This document shows positions 576 through 37,938 of a stretch of DNA of 64,000 nucleotides, in pieces; position 1 is the first letter of the stretch, and every line of letters starts with the position of its first letter. The notes below the pieces were generated by a model. The model searched no databases. It was not told the origin of the DNA and was given only the letters and a program-made list of their open reading frames with translations. Source of the stretch: Raillietiella orientalis (taxonomy: Eukaryota); the NCBI GenBank assembly GCA_036172245.1, contig JAYWIR010000012.1, positions 992,001 through 1,056,000 on the forward strand, in the 5' to 3' direction. A program made the position numbers and the translations under genes.

Positions 576-882
576 GAATCGTTTCCTTTTCGATGGCATT
601 TAGAATCATTAAATCTGATTAGCACTTAGTTGAACGAATTATCAACAAAAAGGCAAGTTATCTTATATCGGGTATTGTTTTGTTTTTTTTCCTTCCTTCC
701 TTTGACTCTACGTAGCTAAGGATTAACAAGTCCTTAACTCGTAAAGCGTATGGTGCGTAGCTGGATTTTGTGTGCACAGCGTGGGGGCTTTTTGTGTCTT
801 GAGTTTTCACGTGGTTGCCATCCGTCAAAACTTTTAAGCATGATTTTTCCCAATGGAATTTTGAAGGTTTTTTCTTTTGCAG

Positions 883-3800
883 ATGCATTCTCAAGAGGAA
901 CTGAAAGTATTAACCATAGGAGAGATTGTTCAGTCTCTGATTCAAGCACATAAAACAGGCACCGATGTCAATTTGAATAAGTTGAAAAGTTCAATCTCTT
1001 CCAAATATGGATTAAAAACTTCTCCCAAACTTGTGGAGATAATAGCAGCTGTTCCAAATGAATATAGTAAATCTCTGCTTCCTAAATTGAAAGCAAAGCC
1101 GATAAGAACAGCTAGTGGAGTAAGTACATTCTGTGTAAACATAGAATATAAAGAATTAGCTCATTCAGTAAATAAAAATTTCAGAATCACCCCAACATGT
1201 TGCTTTTTCTTAGTGTTTCATTTATTTTTGTTTGTTTGCACACACATTAACAGGATAATGTTGATTGCTTAAATGTTATAAACTTAATTCACATGTTTCA
1301 AACCATTTCATGAATTGGTATGTTTCATTGCTTCATACATGCATATGAACAAAAGATAATTCAAGTAATGTCTAGATCTTTGATTTATGATTTACAGATT
1401 GCTGTTATAGCAGTAATGTGTAAACCCCACCGGTGCCCACATATAAATATGACAGGAAATATTTGTGTATACTGCCCAGGAGGTCCAGATTCAGATTTCG
1501 AGTATTCTACACAATCATATACAGGTTATGAACCTACTTCAATGAGAGCTATTCGTGCTCATTATGATCCTTATTTGCAAACCCGGCATCGTATTGAACA
1601 GGTGAGTGTTGACAAATTCAGTTCCAGTCTTGTAGATTTATATTTCCCTACTTTGATCTTGTGAAGCTTCTATATCATCTTTAGTTTGGTGTTTGAGCTT
1701 CACAGCACTTTATCCATACTGTTGTAATCTTTCTGATTTATATTGCTTTGCTATTGGTTATATTGATGTGAAGTGTGATTGCCACTGTTCAAAAGCTTAG
1801 GACTTTGGTTTGTTGATTAAATTCACTGCTTACTTATTACATGGCAGATGTAGCTTTGATCAAATGAAGTTCATATTTGATTAGTGTTGTGTTGTATTTC
1901 TTTGTACAAAACTTTGTAACCTAAAATGGAGGAGTGTGTATGCTGGTTATTACTTTTTATTTGTTTCTGTGATTAATGTGAACAAAAAAGTTAACCAAAT
2001 GGTAACAAAAAGAAACTGGAATCTTGAATAAAGAATTTGCCAATTAATTAAGTTCTGGCAAAGATGAACAAAGAAAATTATGAAACAGTAAAACATTAGT
2101 ATGCTCGCATACAATGGAAGTTTGTTGCATGAAAATGCTGTTCTGTTTAATGAAATGCATGTAAAATGTACCTGAAAGCTCAGAAGCTAAATTAGAATGA
2201 TGCTCTCCAAATTTTTTTAAAATTCAATTATTTGAAATAATGAAGTATAGAAATGGAAAGCTCATTGATCCCTACATTGAATGCAACCATGTGTTATTTG
2301 GTGTAAATGCCTGCAATCACATGATTATATGTGCATTAATCACATTTCTGATGTTACATCCTAGAATTGTATAATCTCTGATATTTGGCATGATTGGAAA
2401 TTATACATGCATGAACTATATTTAAATTTAAGTTAGTTGTATTTTTGCAGCTTCAAGAGCTTGGACATACAGTGGACAAAGTGGAATTCATTGTAATGGG
2501 AGGTACTTTTATGTGTCTTCCTGAAGATTATCGTGATTACTTCATTCGAAATCTTCATGATGCTTTATCAGGGCATACAAGTCAGAATGTAGCAGAAGCA
2601 ATCAGGTAGAGATAATGGTAACAATTAGTGATTCTATTCATGCAAGCAGGTATTCAGAGTGGAGCAATACCAAATGTGTTGGTATTACTATTGAGACAAG
2701 ACCTGATTATTGTCTTAAGCGCCATCTGTCAGATATGCTGTGCTATGGATGTACCCGATTAGAGGTTGGTGTTCAGTCTGTGTATGAAGATGTAGCTAGA
2801 GACACAAATCGTGGCCACACTGTCCGTGCTGTATGTGAAAGCTTCCAGCTTGCTAAAGATGCTGGCTTCAAAGTTGTGGCCCATATGATGCCCAATTTGC
2901 CAAATGTAGACTATGAGAGAGATGTAGAACAATTCAAGGTTGGGAGGCAATGATGGATGTTTTATTTTGCATTGGATGATATCAGGAATTTTTTGAAAAT
3001 CCTGCTTTCCGTGCTGATGGTCTTAAAATTTATCCTACTTTGGTAATCCGAGGAACAGGCTTATATGAGTTATGGAGAACTGGTCGATACAAAAGTTATG
3101 ATGCCAGTGCTCTTGTTGATCTGATAGCTCTCATCCTCTCCTTGATTCCTCCCTGGACTAGAGTTTACCGAGTTCAAAGAGATATCCCTATGCCCCTAGT
3201 TAGGTAAGAGTTCTTTTTGTATTTTGTTTAAATGTGGCAGAAGTAAGCAATGTGCCATAATACTAGTAATGCAATAAGATATTAGCAAATATGGGTGAAC
3301 ACGAGTCAAAGAATGTCTTATAGAAACTGTTGTTTTCATTAGAAATTTGATGGACAAATGTATTGCATGGGTTGAAGTGCATGTGCTTGTCTAATTGCGA
3401 GGGGATATCTTGGCAGCTTGGAAGCAGATTATGCACTCCCATACTTGAAAGTCCTGCTTATCAGTGGTATTGTTTCTCTCAGGGTTTGTTTGCAGAAAGT
3501 TGTCTCACATCATTCTTGAAAGTAGATTTAAAATATTCTTTGATTTATACCAAACCCCAAATGTTTTTTAATACAATCATTTATTATTAGTATATAATAT
3601 ATTATCCTTTATTTTCTGTTTGTTGTAAATACTGTCTCATCTTTGCCAGCTGCATAGCACAGTGTCTCATTTCTCCATAGTTGGATATTTTGAAAAGTGA
3701 TAAGAATTGATTTCAGATGTATATTAAATTGTTCAACATAAATCACATTTAGTTCATGTATAAGTGGGGTAACTTAAAGAACATACCCATAAATATATGG

Positions 3801-4705
3801 GTTTGTTTTTTCACTTGCATTGTAATTATCTTATGGTGAGAAATGGTGAAATGGTTGCCAAATTATAATCCAGATTTTAAATGATAATTTTGTATTTTTA
3901 GTTTGTATTTGGTTTGTTTGAAAGGAATTTACTAGTAGAAGTGAGGATTAAATTCTTTAAAAGTGTGTTAACCATTTGTATTGAAAGTTAAAAAGGAGAA
4001 TTTGGCACCCAAGCTTTATTTTTCATTTTTGTTTATCTTGCAAATCGCTTCTTGCCATGTGTCAGTGATGAATACCACCATTTCCAGTTCTGGAGTTGAA
4101 CATGGGAACCTGAGAGAATTGGCATTGGCTCGTATGCAAGAAATGGGCTTAAAATGTCGTGATGTGCGTACTCGAGAAGTAGGAATCCAAGAAATTCATC
4201 AAAAAGTCAGACCCCATCAGGTATGAGGCTTCAAAGTTCTCTTATTTATGATATGCTTATTTATTTCTCTGAAGGTAGAGTTAATTCGGAGAGAGTACTA
4301 TGCAAATGGGGGCTGGGAAACCTTCCTTTCATACGAAGATCCTCATCAAGATATTTTAGTTGCACTACTGAGGCTGCGTAAATGTTCCAAGGAAACATTT
4401 CGGTATTGCATTGTCAGCACTGGCGAAAATACTTGTTTCACATTTTTAGGCCCGAGCTCAAAGGAAAAGTTTCTATTGTTCGAGAGTTACATGTCTATGG
4501 TTCAGTGGTTGCTATAAGTGATAGAGACTCTAATAAATTCCAGCATCAAGGCTATGGTGCTCTACTTATGGAGGAAGCGGAAAGAATTGCTGCTGAAGAA
4601 CATTGTAGCACAAAAATTGCTGTCATCTCTGGTGTGGGAACAAGAAATTACTATAGAAAGTTAGGATACCAACTCGATGGTCCTTACATGAGCAAAATGT
4701 TATAG
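883..4705 (+). CDS. ELP3: Elongator complex protein 3 (radical SAM + GNAT acetyltransferase), 539 aa from ATG 883
   Basis: Exons 883-1119, 1398-1601, 2451-2605, 2650-2938, 2986-3203, 4088-4220, 4275-4402 and 4450-4705. All introns are GT-AG and the exons join in frame (1620 nt). Motifs [66 protein letters not shown] 883 follows an acceptor AG, so a short upstream exon may add residues. Confidence 0.97.
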
Positions 4706-13721: not shown

Positions 13722-14837
13722 TTATTTTAAATCTACAATAAAATTGCACACTTGGGGGAACAAAAATCCTGCTGAAAATTCACCTACTTTTGAAAAATTA
13801 CCAGCAAGATACCTGCTACTCTGAATAAGAATTTTAAAAATACGCATCATCTGAGATTGACTAATTTCCGAATTTATTACATTGGGGTCATTGATCCAGG
13901 TTTTGCATGTATTATCAGCTGCTGAAGTATAAGCATATAACACTTTATAAGCCTCATGACAATCACACAAGAATTCTTCATTTGTATCTGTACTAGTGTG
14001 CTCAGCAAGGAAAACACTTAAATTAGTTTCCAGGAACCATATCAATAAGAACACTTTGCTTTGTGTTGCATATTCCCATGACTGCAAACATATTTTGGAA
14101 GTTGAAACACATGTATTTCTGAGGCGCAATAGCTTCAGTGGTAAATTATCTACATTGTATTTAAATTGAAAAGCTGTGCTTTGAATGATGATGGAGCTTT
14201 TCCATATGGATACTCCTTCATGCATTTTTTTCCCGACATCATTTAAACAAGTATTGCAGAAGAAAAAGTTGCCTTCAACATAACATCCACTCTGAATGAC
14301 TGACGTGGAAACAAGTAAATAATTTTCTCCAAAGTAACAGCAGTTGCTCTTAAAAGTTAAATGTTTGCTTAAATCGAAATCAAGTTTGGCATGACAAAAC
14401 CAATCACAAAAATTATCTTGCCAGTTCTCACTTGGTAAGGCAAATACGGTTTCAAAGTACACATTATCATTGAGAACAGTCTCACATTTGGAACACTTAA
14501 AACTAAGTTTCACTTTCTCTAACTGATTGGATTTGAGTTCGTCCATAGTTTCATCGAACTTCAAGTGCGAAGAATCATTACAATCAATTAAAGATACATT
14601 AGAAGATAAAAAAAGCTTCAGTACAATTCCACTTGAGGTTGCAGAAATAAATGAAACTGACTTAATTTTATCAAAACAACTGACCAAGTTTAGTATAAAG
14701 GTTTCATTATTCATGGTTATATGGAGCCTATGCTTGATTATCTCTGTTTTTATTCGCATTGGAAAGTCAATTTTCAAATCCGTGATATATACATACGCTG
14801 CCCCTAACAGCTTCCATTTTTCAATCAGTATCCTCAT
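13722..14837 (-). CDS. UBE3D: E3 ubiquitin-protein ligase E3D-like (HECT_2 family), 371 aa, intronless CDS
   Basis: Uninterrupted ORF with FKCSKC...ALPSENWQDNFCDWFCH and a later CNTC..VG, matching the UBE3D/Ipa1 CxxC..LPSENW..W.CH signature. Confidence 0.88.
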   Translation of the reverse strand: MRILIEKWKLLGAAYVYITDLKIDFPMRIKTEIIKHRLHITMNNETFILNLVSCFDKIKSVSFISATSSGIVLKLFLSSNVSLIDCNDSSHLKFDETMDELKSNQLEKVKLSFKCSKCETVLNDNVYFETVFALPSENWQDNFCDWFCHAKLDFDLSKHLTFKSNCCYFGENYLLVSTSVIQSGCYVEGNFFFCNTCLNDVGKKMHEGVSIWKSSIIIQSTAFQFKYNVDNLPLKLLRLRNTCVSTSKICLQSWEYATQSKVFLLIWFLETNLSVFLAEHTSTDTNEEFLCDCHEAYKVLYAYTSAADNTCKTWINDPNVINSEISQSQMMRIFKILIQSSRYLAGNFSKVGEFSAGFLFPQVCNFIVDLK

Positions 14838-15689
14838 GTTTCAAATACTTGCAACCGAAATTTTCTATAACAGTTCTCACTTTCGAGATAAATACCCAGT
14901 TAATGAAAAATTCTTCTGGAATCCTAATGAAATATCGAATGGGATCGCAGGAAAATTATGTGCTCAAAACTATATTCCTGTTTTCATCAAATTTACACCC
15001 TTTGAACACCTTGCTCATGATGGTTTATGATTACTAAGTACGTTATCACTCCAGCCACCAGAGCATTAAATTAGCCTTCGCTTGATTTCTGAAGAACTTA
15101 GTTCTCAAGCTTACACAACCACAAATGGGCATCCCAGCATTATCTTTTATCCAGGGCCCCAATCCCACACTTTCGGCAGAGGGTATAAGGTACTTCGCAT
15201 GCAAGCATGCACATAGGCACACCGGCTACGCTTCAGGATGCCAGGTTCTCCTAGAGTTTTTGTTGGAACTTCAAGACTCGGTCAAAAGCTATGACAAAAA
15301 CACAACTGATATACAATGATCGCTTTTGTAATACATTGTGCTATAGGTGCACAATTAAGGGTTTCAAGATGTGCTTTCAAATTGGAAATACTGGAATTTC
15401 CCGGACTGCATTACACCTGAGAACAGAACCATTCCAGTGATCCTCGATGATGCACTGTAATGCATTCTGAAGACTATGAAAAAGTATTGAAACAATTCGA
15501 TCGAAAAAAAAAAGTTCATTATATGCGAAAATTCGCGTTCTGACTAGAACCTCAAATACCTCCAAATATTTGCTATTACAAAATATATAAGGATTAACGT
15601 ATGAAGGCGGTACCGACTTTCTGTGCTAGAATTTTGAAGTCGAGAAATAATGATTTTACGTGATAGCATCAGTATACGTATACATGCAT

Positions 15690-23080: not shown

Positions 23081-23138
23081 TCCGTCCCAAAATTTTGACA
23101 GATTTTCACCCGGTGACTCTGGGGTGTTTCTTCTAAAA

Positions 23139-23345
23139 CTAATAATGACAACACTACTACTACTACTAATAACAACAACAACAATAACAATAACATCAAT
23201 ACCGATAACAATAGCAATGCTAACAATAATAGCGATAATAATAATGACAACAATAACAAGAAAAGTGATAATAACAATAATAATAACAAAACAATAAAAA
23301 TAGCAATAATAATAATAATAGAAACAGTAATAATAATAATAAACA
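23139..23345. repeat. Degenerate (AAT/AAC/ACT)n trinucleotide tract
   Basis: Directly visible; it produces the spurious poly-I/L/Y ORFs in the track. Confidence 0.9.
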
Positions 23346-23499
23346 AGTTGAGAAAAAGGCAGTTCCCGGAACAAAAAGAAAAAGTTCATTGGGAGGGATC
23401 CACCGACAACCGACACGCAGGTACGAGATGTTCGGAACGAGAGGAAGGTGAGTAGAAATTAAGAAATAAACGTTCAGGGGTGAGGACGAGGGTCTTTGG

Positions 23500-24881: not shown

Positions 24882-25064
24882 GACGCCCTTCGGCCAGCAG
24901 TCTTGCTTGCAGACTCATGTTGCCTATGCAGGATAATAGATGCCTGGAGCCACGCAAGAGGAAGGCACAGAGACAGAGATGACACATCCACTTTGCCGTG
25001 CGATTCATGATGGCATTCATGATGACCGCACCTGGAAAACAACATCCAGCAAGGCATCCTCAAA
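24882..25064 (+). repeat. Inverted near-identical copy of 28112-28294 (LINE ORF2 C-terminal fragment)
   Basis: Reverse complement matches with few differences; both give MRMPCWMLFSRCGH in the ORF track on opposite strands. Confidence 0.85.
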
Positions 25065-26039
25065 AGATCCCCCCTTCCTTCCTTTCCATGGGAACCTGGA
25101 CTGGATGCCCTGCCCTAGGAGGCGCATCCTCTCCCCTCCCCCCTTTCTCCTCGTCATCTCTACAGTTTCCATGGCAGCGCGGTGTTTACCCTAAGTCCCG
25201 CTGACGGCAGGCGCGAAATGATCGAAAAGGCAAGCAGCTACCGGGATCCGGCCGCCTCGTAGATCAGGGGCTCGTGCGACCCGGAGTTTTCCAGCTTCTG
25301 AGAAAGGACTTCTGGCGGCGATGCAGGAGATCGCTGCCGATGTGGGATGGCGAGAAGCCTCCCTGAGCGTGCCGATCCCGAAGGTGAGGAGGAGGAGGAG
25401 GTGAAGGGAGGGGGAACGGAAGATGCCCTGACTCTCCCTCTCCCTCTCCAAGCCGCGGAGAAGCACCACCAGAAGGAGCAGGAGCTTAGGCATGCCATCC
25501 CGACGAAGCTGGCGCCTCTGAAGGAGTTGGCCTTGGGATCCATGAAGGCACCCCTACTGGTGGAAGGAGGGTTCGCGGGAACGGCGGTGACTCCAGACTG
25601 CTTCCTCGTGAAGACCGGTGAGTCCCGGGCCAAAGTGGCAGTCTCGTGTAAGAGGAGGGGTCAAGATGGTCCCCCTATTGGAGGTGATCGTCCGGCAACG
25701 CCCCACGAAGGCGCAGAGCGCCAGACCCTGACCCGCACCACAGTACATGTGTTGGAATATTTCCATTAATCACAACGGATAGTTGAGGTCGTTCTGGTTG
25801 TATGACGGCAAGAATGAATTTATCAAATAGCGACTTTGGGTTCTGAAGGATTATTTCTCGGTAACAGTATGCGGTGTAAAAAGAAAAAAAGGTGTATTTT
25901 TTATTTGTTTTACGTTGCCAGAGCAGTTGCCTTCGCTGAGTCTTTCGTGCTCACGAGACCGGCGCTCTGCATCAAGTCGCTGGGGTTCTTGCGGTCCGTG
26001 CTCGCTGGGATGACGAAAAGCGAAGAAGCATGGCCTTGA

Positions 26040-27899: not shown

Positions 27900-28720
27900 A
27901 TATAAAAAATAAACAATCATGGTCTCTATGGTTGGACCACCACTGGTCCAACCACTTACAATTTAGCGGGAGCCTCCCGGGTTACCAGTACGCAGACCTT
28001 TAAGGTCCGCCACGGCAGCAGAGGGAAAGGGGATACACAAAAAAATAAACAAACAAATTTGGAAGAGTGCGGGAAGGGGTAAAGTCCTGCTAGCGGCGGT
28101 CCTCTGCATCCTTTTGAGGATGCCTTGCTGGATGTTGTTTTCCAGGTGTGGTCATCTCGATGCCATCATGAATCGCACGGCAAAGTGGATGTGTCATCTC
28201 TGTCTCTGTGCCTTCCTCTTGCGTGGCTCCAGGCATCTATTATCCTGCGTAGGCAACATGAGTCTGCAAGCGAGACTGCTGGCCGAAGGGCGTCGCGTAG
28301 GAGGAGGGTTTCAGAGCATCCCTGGAGTTGCCTCCGGGGGGATCCCAGGGTCGCAGCAAAGCGTTCCCAGAAAGACCGGATGGAAACAGGATCCACTAGC
28401 GGGTGCGGGAGGGATTCGCTCTCCCCGCACCTGCCACGCTCCCGTGTCCAGTGGTGCCGGCGGGCGTTGCACGGGAAGCCCTAGCGCAGCAGCCTTACCG
28501 CCGACTCCTGCCACCTTAATGGGAGGGCGTGCATGACCAAAAACACTGGGGGCCGCTGCAGGTCTTCCTCGGGAATACCGAGTAGCTCGCTCCATCGCAA
28601 AAGTTCTCGAGGTGGGGCACTCGGGGTCACAGCGTCCGTAAGCTGACCGTCGTCCACTCACCAAATGCTTTTCTCCTTCCGGAGATTTCTGCGCTAAGCT
28701 CCCATCTAGCCGCAAGGCTG
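27900..28720 (-). mobile_element. L1/Tx1-like LINE 3' relic
   Basis: LPLRWQESAVRLLR*GFPCNARRHHWTRERGRCGESESLPH..RSFWERF; 3' UTR shares the ggtctgcgt motif with 26040-26200 and 54880-55030. Confidence 0.65.
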
Positions 28721-29619: not shown

Positions 29620-32600
29620 TCAGAGAAGTGGTCGGTATGCCACGCATGTGATGCAGCAGGTGTCGTGATCATCCCTCTTCAGTCTCATGTAACCTCCCTC
29701 CCCCCAGCTTTCTCCCCAAGAGTTTTTGACGATCCAGTAATCTGTTCCAGAATCCAGATCCGTGCCGTACCCAACCACTACGCCAAAATGGTTGTACGTC
29801 ACAGAGGAACACTTCCGGCCAGAGTGTATCCCTGGTCATCGCAAGGGGGTTTCCCCGGTAATGCTTTGATATCCGAAACAATTACCTCTGTAGTAGAACT
29901 GGAACGTCCTGGCCGAGACGTCCAGAGACACGGAAACGGGACCGAAGTCTGTCACTTCTTGCAGCAGCTCCCGGCTATCCTCGACCACTTTGAAGCCGCT
30001 GACCCTGATTCCGCTCGTTTCCTCCGCAGCGGAGCATCCACCTGCCTGAGGAGCACCATCGCTTCCAAAACCCCGTTTCCTCCCCTCCCTTCAGTACTTT
30101 ATCGAGATGAAGGTATTCATCCTGCTTTAGAACACTGTGGGATGTCAGGTATCTCATTGCCGCTTCCAGGGATCCCTCAGGGATGCAGTCCACCAACTGC
30201 TGAGCGCTCAGGTTCCTCAAGAGACCACTCTTCAGAAAGAACGTGCTCTCCAAGGATTCCACCTTTCGTTGTTCGAGAGGAGGTGAGAGGGGGGAAAAGA
30301 GACTGAGCCGACATCGGTTTCCGAGACTCACGACGCTGAATGCCCATCCCGTTCTCAACTTCTTTTGCCTCTTAACGGTCGTCACGGCTCCCAGCTCCCT
30401 CCAGTCCAGGGATTCGGAAGAGAAAGCTTTCCCGCTTTCTCGGGAAGGAGGACGATTCCTTTCGGTGCGCCTCGCGTGGTGCGCGAAACCAGCCACCAGC
30501 AACGAGAACTCCTCCTGCGTCTGGAGGGGTCGACGGAGAGGGGCGCCGTGCCTTGAAGGCTGCTGGTCCCGCACTCACCAGGTCTCCGAACTCGTTTAGC
30601 AGCAGCTCGACGTCCTCCTCGCCTCTCCAGTGCTTCTTGTTATGCTCGTCGACGAACCTGCCATTCTTCAAGAAGACGTCTCTCCTGAAGTGCTCTTCGT
30701 CCGGTCCCGAGTACGACTTCCCGTACACGTACTGGGGGCAGAAAAAGGACGGGCTGTTGCTTTCGCTCCAGGGAGCAGCGACGCATCGTCCCGCTCCCTG
30801 CTCAACCTTGACTCCCCCTTCCGATTATCCCCGCTCCAACCGTCACGGGTGCGGCGCGACCGGTGACGACGTTTTCCGCGGAGATCTGGGAAAGGGCAGA
30901 GGGTGTGGCGGAAAGCTACTGCCTCGATCGTGCTGGAACGAGTCGGATCAGGATGGACGGAAGGGGTCTCTCTGGGGGAGGCTGACGCGCATGGACCGGC
31001 CCCCCTCTGGGGAGGAAATCGCTTCTCCTCGGTAACCTCTCGAGACCACCTCGGTTTCTGGCTTCCGGACTTCCACCCTCTTTCGCGAAATGAGTGTTCA
31101 CACGGAGAAGGGGAGGCAAACCGCCGGAAAACGGGAATTGGACAAGAGCTTCGCAAGCTTCTTTTCTTCTTGGACCGGCTGGCATGGAGAGGATCCTGCA
31201 CGTTCTCTCAGTGGGGAGGAAAATGGCGAACCCCTGGCTTAGCCATCTTCCCGCGTGAGCGCCTGGGAATTCGCTGCTGCACTGTCGCACCTCTGCGACC
31301 CTTGCACAGCCTTATCAAAACCTTATCGGTCACCCCTGCCCCCCCTCCTCATGGTTCACGGGAAGTGCTTACTTCGCATCTGGACTCACCAGCGGAAATG
31401 GCCCTACACAGGAAGCGCCGGATCGCCCTGCCCGCTGCGGCTGCGAGCGGCGCCGGCAAGAAGGTCGCGTCTGGTGTTCGCCACAGCACTGCGGTGCTGG
31501 CCACCCTCTCGGGGAGACGGACGGAAAGCCCAAATGCTTCCGCCAGGTGGTGCTGCGCGCGTGCCAGAAGAGCACAGGGCAGTGGCGAGTCCTCTCCTCG
31601 TTCTAAACCTCCTCCTTCTTCACGTATGCTGAGCGATCTCCGCCGGAAAGCCGGTTTGCCTCCCCTCCTACAGTCATCTACAGTCTCCTTTGCAGAGAAC
31701 TCTGACCTTCTTTCTCGAATCCCACTTATGCTCATCTTGAGAGCAGAGACCTTCCTTCCCTCCCGTCCCTTGACGGCATGCTGGCGAGAGGGCAGCAGCT
31801 CCTAACGAATCGGTATCGGTCCACTGTCGCTCTCCGGAAAAGACAGCAAGTGGAAGGGACTGGTCCTCCAATTGGGAACGCGCGCATCCCTACTTGCACC
31901 CTGCGAAGTTTGCGATGAGCGCCTAACAGTATTCCCGGGGAAGCAGACCGCTATCGACAGGTCCCTCCCACAGAAGGGCCACCTCTTTCCACTTGGCCTT
32001 GTCTTCCTTTTTCCTGCCCTCGACCTCGGTCTCCCTCCTCTGGGAGCGCTTTCCCTTCTGCTTGCCGGATCCGCCGTCCTCAGAAACTTGGCTTGTCTTC
32101 CGGATGTTGGCTCGGGGTGACGAACCTCATGACCTTGCTTACGCGCCTTGGTTGCAGCCGATGATCAGGATGAGTGGTCGCTTCGAGTGATCCCAGAGTC
32201 TAGAACGCGACCCGGACTCGTTCGGGTCAGCTTCGTCTCCATCGGGAGCAGCGGACCGGCGCAACAGGTCTCCTTCCTCGAGATCGTGCTGACCCACAAC
32301 CATCCCTTCCCTAGCATCCCTCTTCGGAGGACTCAATCTTTTCTCTCCTGACTTTCCCGCCGGCACTTCAAAAAGGAGAGAGGGCGGGCTTTCTTCCCGC
32401 ACCCGCTACCATGGGAACCGCCTGCAGAGGAACGCACTGCCGTCGACCCAGGGCTGCTTGCTCCTCCCCTGGCCTTCGCGCGCCCTGCGGAGCCGTGGCG
32501 CGCCGGCACGCGCTCTCATCTGCTTGCCTCCTCCAAGACGGAAGTCCTTCTCGCCCTGCCTCTGCCTTCTGTATCCCGATGAGGATCTCCCTGTGCTCCC

Positions 32601-33401
32601 GACTGCGTGGCCTTCCCCTCGCCTTTCGCCTCCAAATGCTTCATTCGCTTCCGAGCTTTCACCTCCCTCCTCTTCGCACGGCTCCACGGTCTAGCTTCTC
32701 GTTCTTTCTCGTTCCTCCCCCTTTTCTGCTTCTGAGGGTAGCAGCAGAGCGACCCTCCGTTGCTCCGCAGCTTTCCCTCTTGTGCCGCCCTTTTTCCCCC
32801 TTCCCTTTCTGCTTCCGTTCCTGCGGACTGGCAAGCAGGCGTGGGTGGGGCACCACGGACATGGATCCGGGGTCTCCCCAGCTCCGAAGAGAAACTGCGA
32901 CGTCCGAAAAATTCGGGTGAAAACAAACAGCCGACATCTTCGATATAGAGGGGCTCCTTATCACTGCGGGGCGAGGAGGGAAACACGCGGTGACGTCACG
33001 GGCTCTCGCAGCAGAGGTGGGAGTGCACATAGCCAAAATGCCAAGGAAGCGGAGACCGACCCCGTCCTCCCCTTTCCTCAGCTTGGTGTGCTCGACTGCC
33101 GCTGCCACTTTGCTCCAGGTTGCACAGCACGCATGACCCTTGGACCCCGTTGTCGATGGTCCACGGGTCACCTCTGGCCAAAATGCTCTCGCACTTGGAT
33201 CCGTGAAGGATCGGCATGCGTAAAAACCAACAGGGAATCCTGGATTCTTCCGCCACGGGAAACGAGGAAGCTGGAGGCGTTCAAAAACAGAAGAACCAAC
33301 AGTACCTTGAACAGCTCCCACTGCTGCTGCTCGTCCAGCTCGAAAGCGCCTGCGGTAAGCGAGCATGCCGCAAGGAGGAGGGTGAAGCCAGTGTTCTTCA
33401 T
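29620..33401 (-). CDS. Secreted cathepsin L-like (C1A) protein, 324 aa, catalytic Cys replaced by Gly (non-peptidase homologue)
   Basis: Exons 33401-33306, 30731-30579, 30520-30332, 30262-30098, 30045-29886 and 29831-29620. All introns are GT-AG; 975 nt, no stops or frameshifts. Signal peptide [20 protein letters not shown]29 prodomain [15 protein letters not shown] and LNEFGDLTQEEF; mature domain [73 protein letters not shown]. Confidence 0.92.
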
Positions 33402-36400: not shown

Positions 36401-36771
36401 AATGTGAGAACACTTCAGAATATATTTTGATTTTCATCACAGGTTAAGATTTTGAAAAAAAATCGATGTAAAATCTTCCAAAAATTGGATATGATTGGCT
36501 ACATACAGTGTTAACATGGAAGTGTAAACTATCAAGTTATGTCTTATACAAAAAGACTGATTTAAAAATTATCACAGAAGCATGGAATTGAATTCTACTT
36601 GTAAGTTCAGTGTAATGCCAACATGATGGTTGGAGATCTAATGTTGCAAAAAAAGCAAAACTCAGTGCAAAATGTTTTTGAAGAAGGCAAAGTAAATTTC
36701 ATTTCATTTTGTATTATTGGAAACTTCTCTTGTAAGTGGAGGACACATGTGAAGTGCTTGTGATTATTGTG

Positions 36772-37938
36772 ATGGGTAATCGCAAAAGTTGCTGTGCACA
36801 TTATAAACAGTGCAGTGCTCTGGATGTGTACAAACCTGATGCCCATACCAAGAAGAAAGAAGAAAGTACTATTCTCCAGCACATAAGTGATAGAGAGCCT
36901 GAAGAATGGGATGCAGATCCATCCCTTCATCCAACTGCAGGCCCTCTGTTTATGGCTAAATCCAAATCACTTCTCGAAAGTAAGGAACAAGTTGCACTTA
37001 TGGGTGATTTATTGTGTTGTTTTCTAGATGGTTTGGTGAAGAGGAGAAGCCACAGCCATGTGAGTATGACAAAGCATAAGGTTTCTTGATGTAGTTGGCA
37101 TCTAGTTATTTAGTTCTTGGATGCTTAAAAAGAGTAGTTCCTGCTCCACAATCTTTTTGGATGACAGTACTGTTTCCCAACCAAATTTGAAGACCACATT
37201 GCGCTGTGTAAGTTTGGCTATCTGCTACCACATTCAGAATCGTACTTCAAACCGAACCATGGATATTTTTGACGAAAGGCGACATCCTTTGACTGTAAGA
37301 TGAAGTAGTGAGAGAGTTTATTAAATATAAAAGTGGTAGAAAGAGGGTGTACCTCCGGGATATGACAAGTACAATCCAGAACAACGACAGATATACAAGT
37401 TTCTGCGAACCCTATTTAGTGCAGCTCAGTTGACTGCAGAATGTGCCATCATTACCCTAGTCTACTTAGAACGGTTATTGACATGTGCTGAGATTGATAT
37501 AACACCATCAACATGGCGCCGCATACTTCTTGGAGCTATTTTGCTTGCTTCCAAAGTATGGGATGACCAAGCCATTTGGAATGTAGATTACTGTCAGATC
37601 TTGAAAGATGTAACAGTAGAAGACATGTAAGTTTTGCATTTCATGTATCTGAAAGAAATGCATCTTTTTCTAGGAATGAATTGGAACGCCAGTTCCTGGA
37701 AATGTTGCAGTTCAACTTTAATGTCCCATCCAGCGTGTATGCCAAGTATTACTTCAATTTACGGCATCTAGCAGATGCCAATTTTCTCAATAGCCCAGCT
37801 GAAGCCCTAAGCAAGGAACGCGCACTCAAGCTAGAAGCAATCTCAGAAGGACGCCACGCATCGTCGGCATCATTACGGAAGTGGTGCAGTTTGGAAAGTG
37901 TTGGCACTCCTCAGCGAAGTTTGGCAATTCTTAGCTGA
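36772..37938 (+). CDS. CCNY: Cyclin Y, 326 aa
   Basis: Exons 36772-36979, 37028-37059, 37106-37294, 37340-37626 and 37674-37938 (981 nt, GT-AG). Motifs MGNRKSCC (acylation), [62 protein letters not shown]. Confidence 0.96.

Follow-up and report, generated by a model that had tools for sequence, protein, structure and literature searches.

We analyzed a 64,000-nucleotide stretch of the Raillietiella orientalis genome (assembly GCA_036172245.1, contig JAYWIR010000012.1, forward-strand positions 992,001 to 1,056,000; here, the window) that carries on its minus strand a gene for a cathepsin-L-like protein without the catalytic cysteine (here, the pseudo-protease). By alignment, one wall of its active-site cleft has been dismantled and the other is kept. 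We consider it probable, with considerable room for doubt, that the gene is a maintained cathepsin L duplicate of the secretory pathway, kept as a noncatalytic binding protein. An earlier sequence-only reading of this stretch had proposed a C1A homologue that is noncatalytic yet maintained and still carries a signal peptide and a prodomain, and this core of it appears supported by the retention of constrained residues and by a neutral simulation (see below).

Gene structure and homology

Joined on the minus strand, the six exons give 975 nucleotides (nt), a stop-free frame of 324 amino acids plus the stop codon, just as the sequence-only reading had it. The five introns (2574, 58, 69, 52, and 54 nt; phases 0, 0, 0, 0, and 1) are all GT-AG, with 10 of 10 splice dinucleotides intact. 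Given that the introns of an active paralogue sit at the identical five codon positions and phases, the six-exon model is not a chance splice. The same five-intron pattern is common to 28 of 38 cathepsin-L-like loci, modelled from genome matches with a purpose-written spliced aligner (several are probably duplicate haplotypes), and the last three introns of these loci are mostly 40 to 60 nt long. The gene model is secure and short introns are ordinary in this genome, which leaves little of the suggestion that micro-introns had hidden the gene; intron 1, moreover, spans 2.6 kb. Retention of intron 3, whose position falls inside the central helix, was set aside, since paralogues remove an intron at this very position. 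The internal exons depart in length from those of the paralogues by multiples of 3 only (exon 2, at 153 nt, is as long as in most of them), and GC content by codon position is 0.55/0.42/0.70, versus 0.58 to 0.60 in introns.

The protein belongs to the C1A papain family and is cathepsin-L-like, as seen from its Peptidase_C1 and I29 domains and the shared gene structure. Peptidase_C1 (PF00112) matches exons 3 to 6, above the cutoff on exon 6 (E, 1.5e-18; exons 3 to 5 are weaker) and in the genome search, while I29 (PF08246) matches exon 2 with 39 bits against a cutoff of 24.4 (E, 1e-9). At the N terminus, where a signal peptide was called by eye and by hydropathy, hydropathy rises to 2.2 over 9 residues, and later 19-residue windows stay at ≤1.0; from this single hydrophobic stretch we infer probable entry into the secretory pathway. 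The signal peptide claimed by the sequence-only reading is thus probable, but its "secreted" goes too far, since the lysosome and the exterior are equally possible destinations.

Remodeling of the catalytic cleft

A gapless alignment to the catalytic position of papain-family chains in the PDB places Gly141 at the site of Cys25, and the GGA codon read there from sequence alone was correct. The papain numbers used for residues of the pseudo-protease are those that we take to correspond, and the residue numbering in our script is that of bat cathepsin L P0014. GGA is two changes away from TGY, which had been offered as an argument against a single base error; only one of the two is nonsynonymous. 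An assembly or base-calling artefact at this codon is scarcely credible, given that codons 136 to 141 each depart from the consensus of active enzymes and that exon 4 has lost 27 nt in frame, too much for one error.

The loss of Cys22 and its partner loop had also been recognized, but the losses turned out to be wider, taking in Gly23, Gly65, an eight-residue loop, and position 160, next to the catalytic His, where Phe270 has taken the place of a small Ala or Gly. Both partners of the Cys22-Cys63 disulfide are gone with no unpaired remnant, and so are both S1 glycines (Gly23 replaced by Arg, Gly65 deleted). In addition, Ser24 has become Thr, position 157 is Tyr, and two extra cysteines, Cys314 and Cys317, lie near the C terminus. 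The Cys56/Cys95 and Cys153/Cys200 pairs are kept, as are Trp177 (Trp293) and the features that the sequence-only reading listed as remaining: Gln135, His269, Asn291, the I29 prodomain, and the probable signal peptide.

Measured against 20 active sequences, the pseudo-protease keeps 51 of 75 near-invariant columns of the mature domain and has lost 24. These losses take 9 of 12 near-invariant residues in the left cleft wall, formed by the L domain, and 15 of 63 elsewhere, with only 1 of 16 lost at positions 160 to 200 (cathepsin numbering). As far as the alignment tells, the left wall is dismantled as a unit and the right half stays. It is very unlikely that the protein still cleaves in the usual way, and doubtful whether it binds substrates normally; the Gly23/Gly65 pair is described as crucial for substrate binding (PMC4336737).

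Evidence for maintenance

Column retention climbs with constraint, from 6/49 in the most variable class through 12/46 and 17/45 to 51/75 in the near-invariant one. The 24 losses among 75 near-invariant columns compare with 0 to 14 of ca. 76 in 11 active paralogues. In a neutral simulation (random substitution of a paralogue, 2000 runs per level, indels not modelled), the frame and all ten splice dinucleotides survived in 15, 3, and 0 runs at 0.10, 0.15, and 0.20 changes per site, respectively, levels at which mean retention was 0.80, 0.72, and 0.65, versus 0.68 observed.

These results bear on whether the gene is a recently silenced, decaying duplicate, under weak constraint, now untranscribed, and with its stop or frameshift still to come. 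Its single copy on a long branch, the fast turnover of the family (5 of the 38 modelled loci are broken), the repeat remnants 1 to 3.5 kb downstream, and the lack of a poly(A) hexamer within 1 kb would all suit such a duplicate. However, simulated decay strong enough to take away 24 near-invariant residues almost never left the frame and every splice site whole, every length change is in frame, and the losses are clustered, with the disulfide lost as a pair. Silencing would fit the data only if it came after a long functional noncatalytic phase, and we regard it as unlikely, if worth keeping in mind.

Several points weigh against maintenance. The mutation model of the simulation is simple, and the constraint gradient is partly a record of the enzyme past. 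The clustering of losses in the left wall has a Fisher p of 0.001 that is overstated, the set having been picked after seeing the data and one deletion being counted several times. None of 10 poly(A) hexamer variants occurs within 1 kb past the stop; AATAAA or ATTAAA lies within ca. 400 nt at 27 of the 38 paralogue loci, and the other eleven, open-frame active ones included, have neither. The terminal branch is very long (2.2 to 2.4 changes per column), which relaxed and positive selection fit alike. The cathepsin-L-like paralogues are <43% identical to the pseudo-protease, and our searches found no orthologue. With these points counted, a long functional phase without catalysis appears well supported by the sequence pattern, and a present-day function seems likely.

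The cathepsin family of Raillietiella

A profile search of the 210-Mb genome gave 124 Peptidase_C1 matches. The same genome has 11 matches to the cuticle domain Chitin_bind_4 and 0 to nematode cuticle collagen, as expected of an arthropod. The 38-locus set leaves aside C4, C45, and C1:8.15-8.19 Mb, which hold other C1A types or fragments, and at least 25 of its loci have an open frame with Cys25. Within this family the pseudo-protease has no close copy: protein searches of the genome with exons 3-4 and with exon 6 hit distant paralogues only (best local identities of ≤49% and ≤54%, respectively), and a DNA search with the ca. 4-kb gene span matched itself only. The description of the surroundings as decayed accordingly applies to the 3' flank, where repeat remnants are 70 to 83% identical to copies elsewhere in the genome, and is not shown for the gene span. 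The sequence-only reading had also raised a lineage-specific family and paralogues with the same substitution. We found neither, the gene being single copy and without an orthologue among 189 retrieved proteins, and the other dead cathepsins of the genome carrying Asp, not Gly.

The three best genome matches of exon 6 are GC-rich paralogues on C22 and C9, which have in common with the pseudo-protease a short insertion after GYG. Its placement in trees shifts with sampling; it adjoins C9:295715, C9:322103, and C22:3171389 at 90/69. Once the catalytically intact Logan protein P0154 is added, the pseudo-protease falls beside it at 97/95; we do not take P0154 for an orthologue, since the grouping joins two long branches. 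Base composition divides the family as well: third-position GC is 0.30 to 0.33 in C3:314456, C3:322339, and C18:2605770 versus 0.45 to 0.89 in the other cathepsin copies, a split that matches the one within the window, where housekeeping blocks are AT-rich and the others GC-rich.

The Asp25 proteins form a second dead group of 9 of the 38 loci, with the motif QGxCxYDW, extra cysteines, and no Gly65/66; the pseudo-protease does not have this motif. One of these loci has exchanged His159 for Gln, two carry a frameshift, and those on C141 seem to represent the other haplotype of the cluster on C3. The pseudo-protease was separate from the Asp25 clade in 200 of 200 bootstrap trees, but the approximately unbiased (AU) test did not reject a shared origin (p = 0.12). 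Cathepsin L has probably turned into a nonenzyme at least twice in this genome.

C9:1046413-1069539 and C173:854-44274 are arrays of near-identical active cathepsin L genes in alternating orientation. Most differences between the copies lie around the cleft, for example GLM versus GWM behind the GG pair, and also ahead of the catalytic His. Of 12 scanned loci with pepsin-family matches, 3 (on C13, C21, and C26) show no DTG-like motif.

Relatives in databases

None of the searches beyond the genome returned an orthologue. A word search with the exon 3-4 stretch had 0 of 76 candidates at an E value of ≤0.001, the exon 6 search gave 155 generic C1A matches among 203 candidates (top-ranked at 44 to 55% identity), phmmer against 1.84 billion representatives gave 69 matches, none of them orthologue-like, and the ESM Atlas gave generic Peptidase_C1 clusters only (0.93). 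The best full-length match among the 189 retrieved proteins was 37% identical. No arthropod cathepsin L with Gly25 and without the loop is described in the literature covered, which leaves out most subscription papers.

The catalytic Cys was absent from at least one domain in 15 of 171 retrieved proteins aligned gaplessly at this site, a query-biased sample, and was replaced by Gly in 4, one being from the beetle Ignelater (P0149). Other arthropod cathepsin-L-like records without Cys25 include P0059 from Ornithodoros (Ser) and P0183 from Aromia (Ser in both domains). Two proteins have also lost Cys22 and the Cys63 loop. The first, P0055, has 486 amino acids, with Gly25, no Cys22, a shortened loop, and, joined on through a Pro-rich linker, a lectin domain of the ricin-B type (PF00652). 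The second, the automatically named "testin-2-like" XP_063906136.1 of Zophobas morio (P0127/P0193/P0194), is 42% identical to the pseudo-protease over 197 columns and shares with it Leu22, the lack of Cys25, a short Cys56 loop without Cys63, and the His and Asn, but it has Pro25 and no prodomain. With the loss columns removed, it clusters with an active Zophobas cathepsin L (P0138/P0197) at 98/89, and its locus tag adjoins that of the active enzyme; a joint clade with the pseudo-protease was not rejected (AU p = 0.097). This grouping with an active cathepsin of adjacent tag suggests convergence, and the loop and disulfide were probably lost independently in the two lineages.

Comparison with known nonpeptidase homologues

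The cathepsin L-like peptidases (MEROPS C1A; human cathepsins L and V and the active paralogues) have the same prepro architecture as the pseudo-protease, with I29, the Gln/His/Asn residues, the same two of three disulfide pairs, and the five intron positions, at 33 to 42% mature-domain identity. Unlike them, it lacks Cys25, Cys22, Cys63, Gly23, and Gly65, has a deleted loop, and carries Phe160 and two C-terminal cysteines. A C1A nonpeptidase homologue is a homologous domain with a catalytic residue replaced (PMC13520124), which describes the pseudo-protease, a C1 domain with Gly25.

Scabies mite SMIPP-Cs, compared here by their published description, are likewise arthropod C1A proteins that lack the catalytic Cys; most have a signal sequence, and active paralogues occur alongside (PMC5956821). 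They are reported to have a Cys-to-Ser and a His-to-Gln or -Leu exchange and no propeptide; they are multicopy and likened to mite group-1 allergens, whereas the pseudo-protease is single copy, of the cathepsin L type, with Gly25 and with His and propeptide kept. The tenebrionid proteins TmL29, TmL30, and XP_970773 are inactive homologues within an arthropod cathepsin L expansion (PMC4336737), in which QC is changed to ES or CA and Gly23/Gly65 are kept; the pseudo-protease keeps Gln19 and has lost both glycines. Testin and silicatein are cathepsin-L-like and nonproteolytic, with Ser at position 25 (PMC3265493), not Gly, and belong to other animal lineages. Expressed C1A pseudopeptidases are also carried by barley relatives (PMC13520124). 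The I29 inhibitors CTLA-2, crammer, BCPI, and salarin are stand-alone prodomains, while the pseudo-protease has a full mature domain after I29.

Glycine at position 25 is found in P34 and SPE31, plant vacuolar proteins of separate origin, and SPE31 (PDB 2B1M) matches exon 6 of the pseudo-protease. Soybean P34 (Gly m Bd 30K) is a papain family member without the catalytic cysteine (PMC2292165; PMC4274471) and binds syringolide (PMC4274471). On the best reading, the pseudo-protease acts like the known C1A nonpeptidase homologues and belongs to no named one tested.

Possible modes of action

As a binding protein, the pro-form would enter the endoplasmic reticulum and fold with its own prodomain as chaperone. 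Since it could not activate itself, it would stay a pro-form or be trimmed by an active paralogue, of which there are many, be it in the lysosome, in the gut lumen, or outside the cell. A partner might then be bound in the widened groove, which would have Lys20, Lys21, and Arg23 along its edge and a narrower S2 owing to Tyr157 and Phe160. With S1 and S2 both altered, neither a canonical inhibitor nor a normal peptide substrate would be as likely a partner as a new ligand; we infer this binding step from the residues of the cleft. SMIPP-Cs, which bind calcium, associate with forming fibrin, and are procoagulant, set a precedent for binding roles (PMC7815109).

The useful part might instead be the prodomain, acting in trans as an I29 inhibitor or stabilizer of active cathepsin Ls, with the dead domain as its carrier. 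The I29 domain is intact, the open-frame Cys25 loci offer possible targets, and free propeptide-like proteins that inhibit and stabilize cathepsin L are on record (PMC4089206). Against this, the prodomain scores 37.6 bits versus 44 to 57 for most paralogues and is 23 to 36% identical to theirs, so its conservation is not unusual, and a chaperone role would be enough to explain its retention. Furthermore, known I29 inhibitors have dropped the enzyme domain, while the pseudo-protease keeps 206 constrained residues there. Delivery of the prodomain thus strikes us as distinctly unlikely.

There is even less to recommend a nonproteolytic catalyst, loosely silicatein-like, in which His159, Asn175, and Gln19 would activate water or a substrate group in the Gly25 cavity for ester hydrolysis or condensation. 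Its attraction lies in the retention of Gln19, His159, Asn175, and Trp177 within the half of the domain that lost a single near-invariant column, and in the contrast with SMIPP-Cs and one Asp25 paralogue, which have lost the His. Yet the His, Asn, Gln, and Trp are structural core that other dead homologues retain as well, position 25 is Ser in silicatein but Gly in the pseudo-protease, and Phe160 and Arg23 would crowd the site, judging by the alignment only. A binding protein is the reading that we prefer.

Feature coordinates and genomic surroundings

Table 1 Features of the pseudo-protease gene (positions in the window) and loci of the Asp25 clade
Feature	Position	Strand	Evidence or comment
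Exon 1: ATG, probable signal peptide (ca. residues 1-19, ending AGA), prodomain start	33306..33401	-	N-terminal hydropathy
Intron 1: 2574 nt, GT-AG, phase 0	30732..33305	-	No repeat match in genome
Exon 2: I29 prodomain core, with motifs presumed to be ERFNIN-type and GNFD-type	30579..30731	-	Pfam PF08246, E 1e-9
Intron 2: 58 nt	30521..30578	-	
Exon 3: prodomain end, basic linker, mature N terminus	30332..30520	-	Alignment to PDB papain-family chains
Gln135 (oxyanion Gln19), kept	30365..30367	-	
Leu138 and Arg139, replacing Cys22 and Gly23	30353..30358	-	
Gly141 (GGA), replacing catalytic Cys25	30347..30349	-	Gapless PDB alignment (see text)
Intron 3: 69 nt, in frame, stop-free	30263..30331	-	Same position in paralogues
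Exon 4: 165 nt vs 192 nt in most paralogues	30098..30262	-	Cys172 (Cys56) kept
In-frame 8-residue deletion in exon 4	near 30176/30175	-	Papain Cys63 and Gly65 removed
Intron 4: 52 nt	30046..30097	-	
Exon 5: 160 nt vs 166; Cys205 (Cys95), GPVSV strand, prodomain-binding loop	29886..30045	-	
Intron 5: 54 nt, phase 1	29832..29885	-	
Exon 6: His269, Phe270, Asn291, Trp293, Cys262/Cys313 pair, Cys314, Cys317, stop	29620..29831	-	
His269 (His159), kept	29790-29788	-	
Asn291 (Asn175), kept	29724-29722	-	
Asp25 clade loci	C3:7369794-7395265, C141:23427-48884, C88:123693-124493		

Elsewhere in the window, an inverted repeat of ca. 185 nt (24882-25066 and 28111-28294; 97 to 99% identical, 3 kb apart) encloses older repeat remnants, and an AAT/AAC-rich simple repeat tract occupies 23131-23351. 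A cyclin gene, which we take to be cyclin-Y-like (36736-37938, plus strand), lies ca. 3.4 kb upstream of the pseudo-protease and faces away from it. The window also holds an ELP3 gene (865-4705, plus strand) and an intronless HECT_2 (UBE3D-like) gene (13722-14840, minus strand).

Significance

Mites, beetles, mammals, sponges, and plants are all known to have dead papain-family proteins, and one more is no surprise, and the gene is at present a single orphan copy known from genome sequence. What it adds is a clean anatomy, with one cleft wall gone and the other untouched, together with the reappearance of such a loss in two unrelated proteins from the databases. The loss of nucleophile together with the Cys22-Cys63 disulfide and loop, independently in Raillietiella, the beetle P0127, and P0055, could conceivably be a repeatable route to a new kind of open-groove receptor or of water-activating catalyst built on the Gln/His/Asn/Trp half-site, and in the Raillietiella genome it would belong to a wider set of secreted dead proteases, a generalization that we hold to be unlikely. 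If a ligand were found for the pseudo-protease, it would show the conversion of a protease cleft into a binding site.

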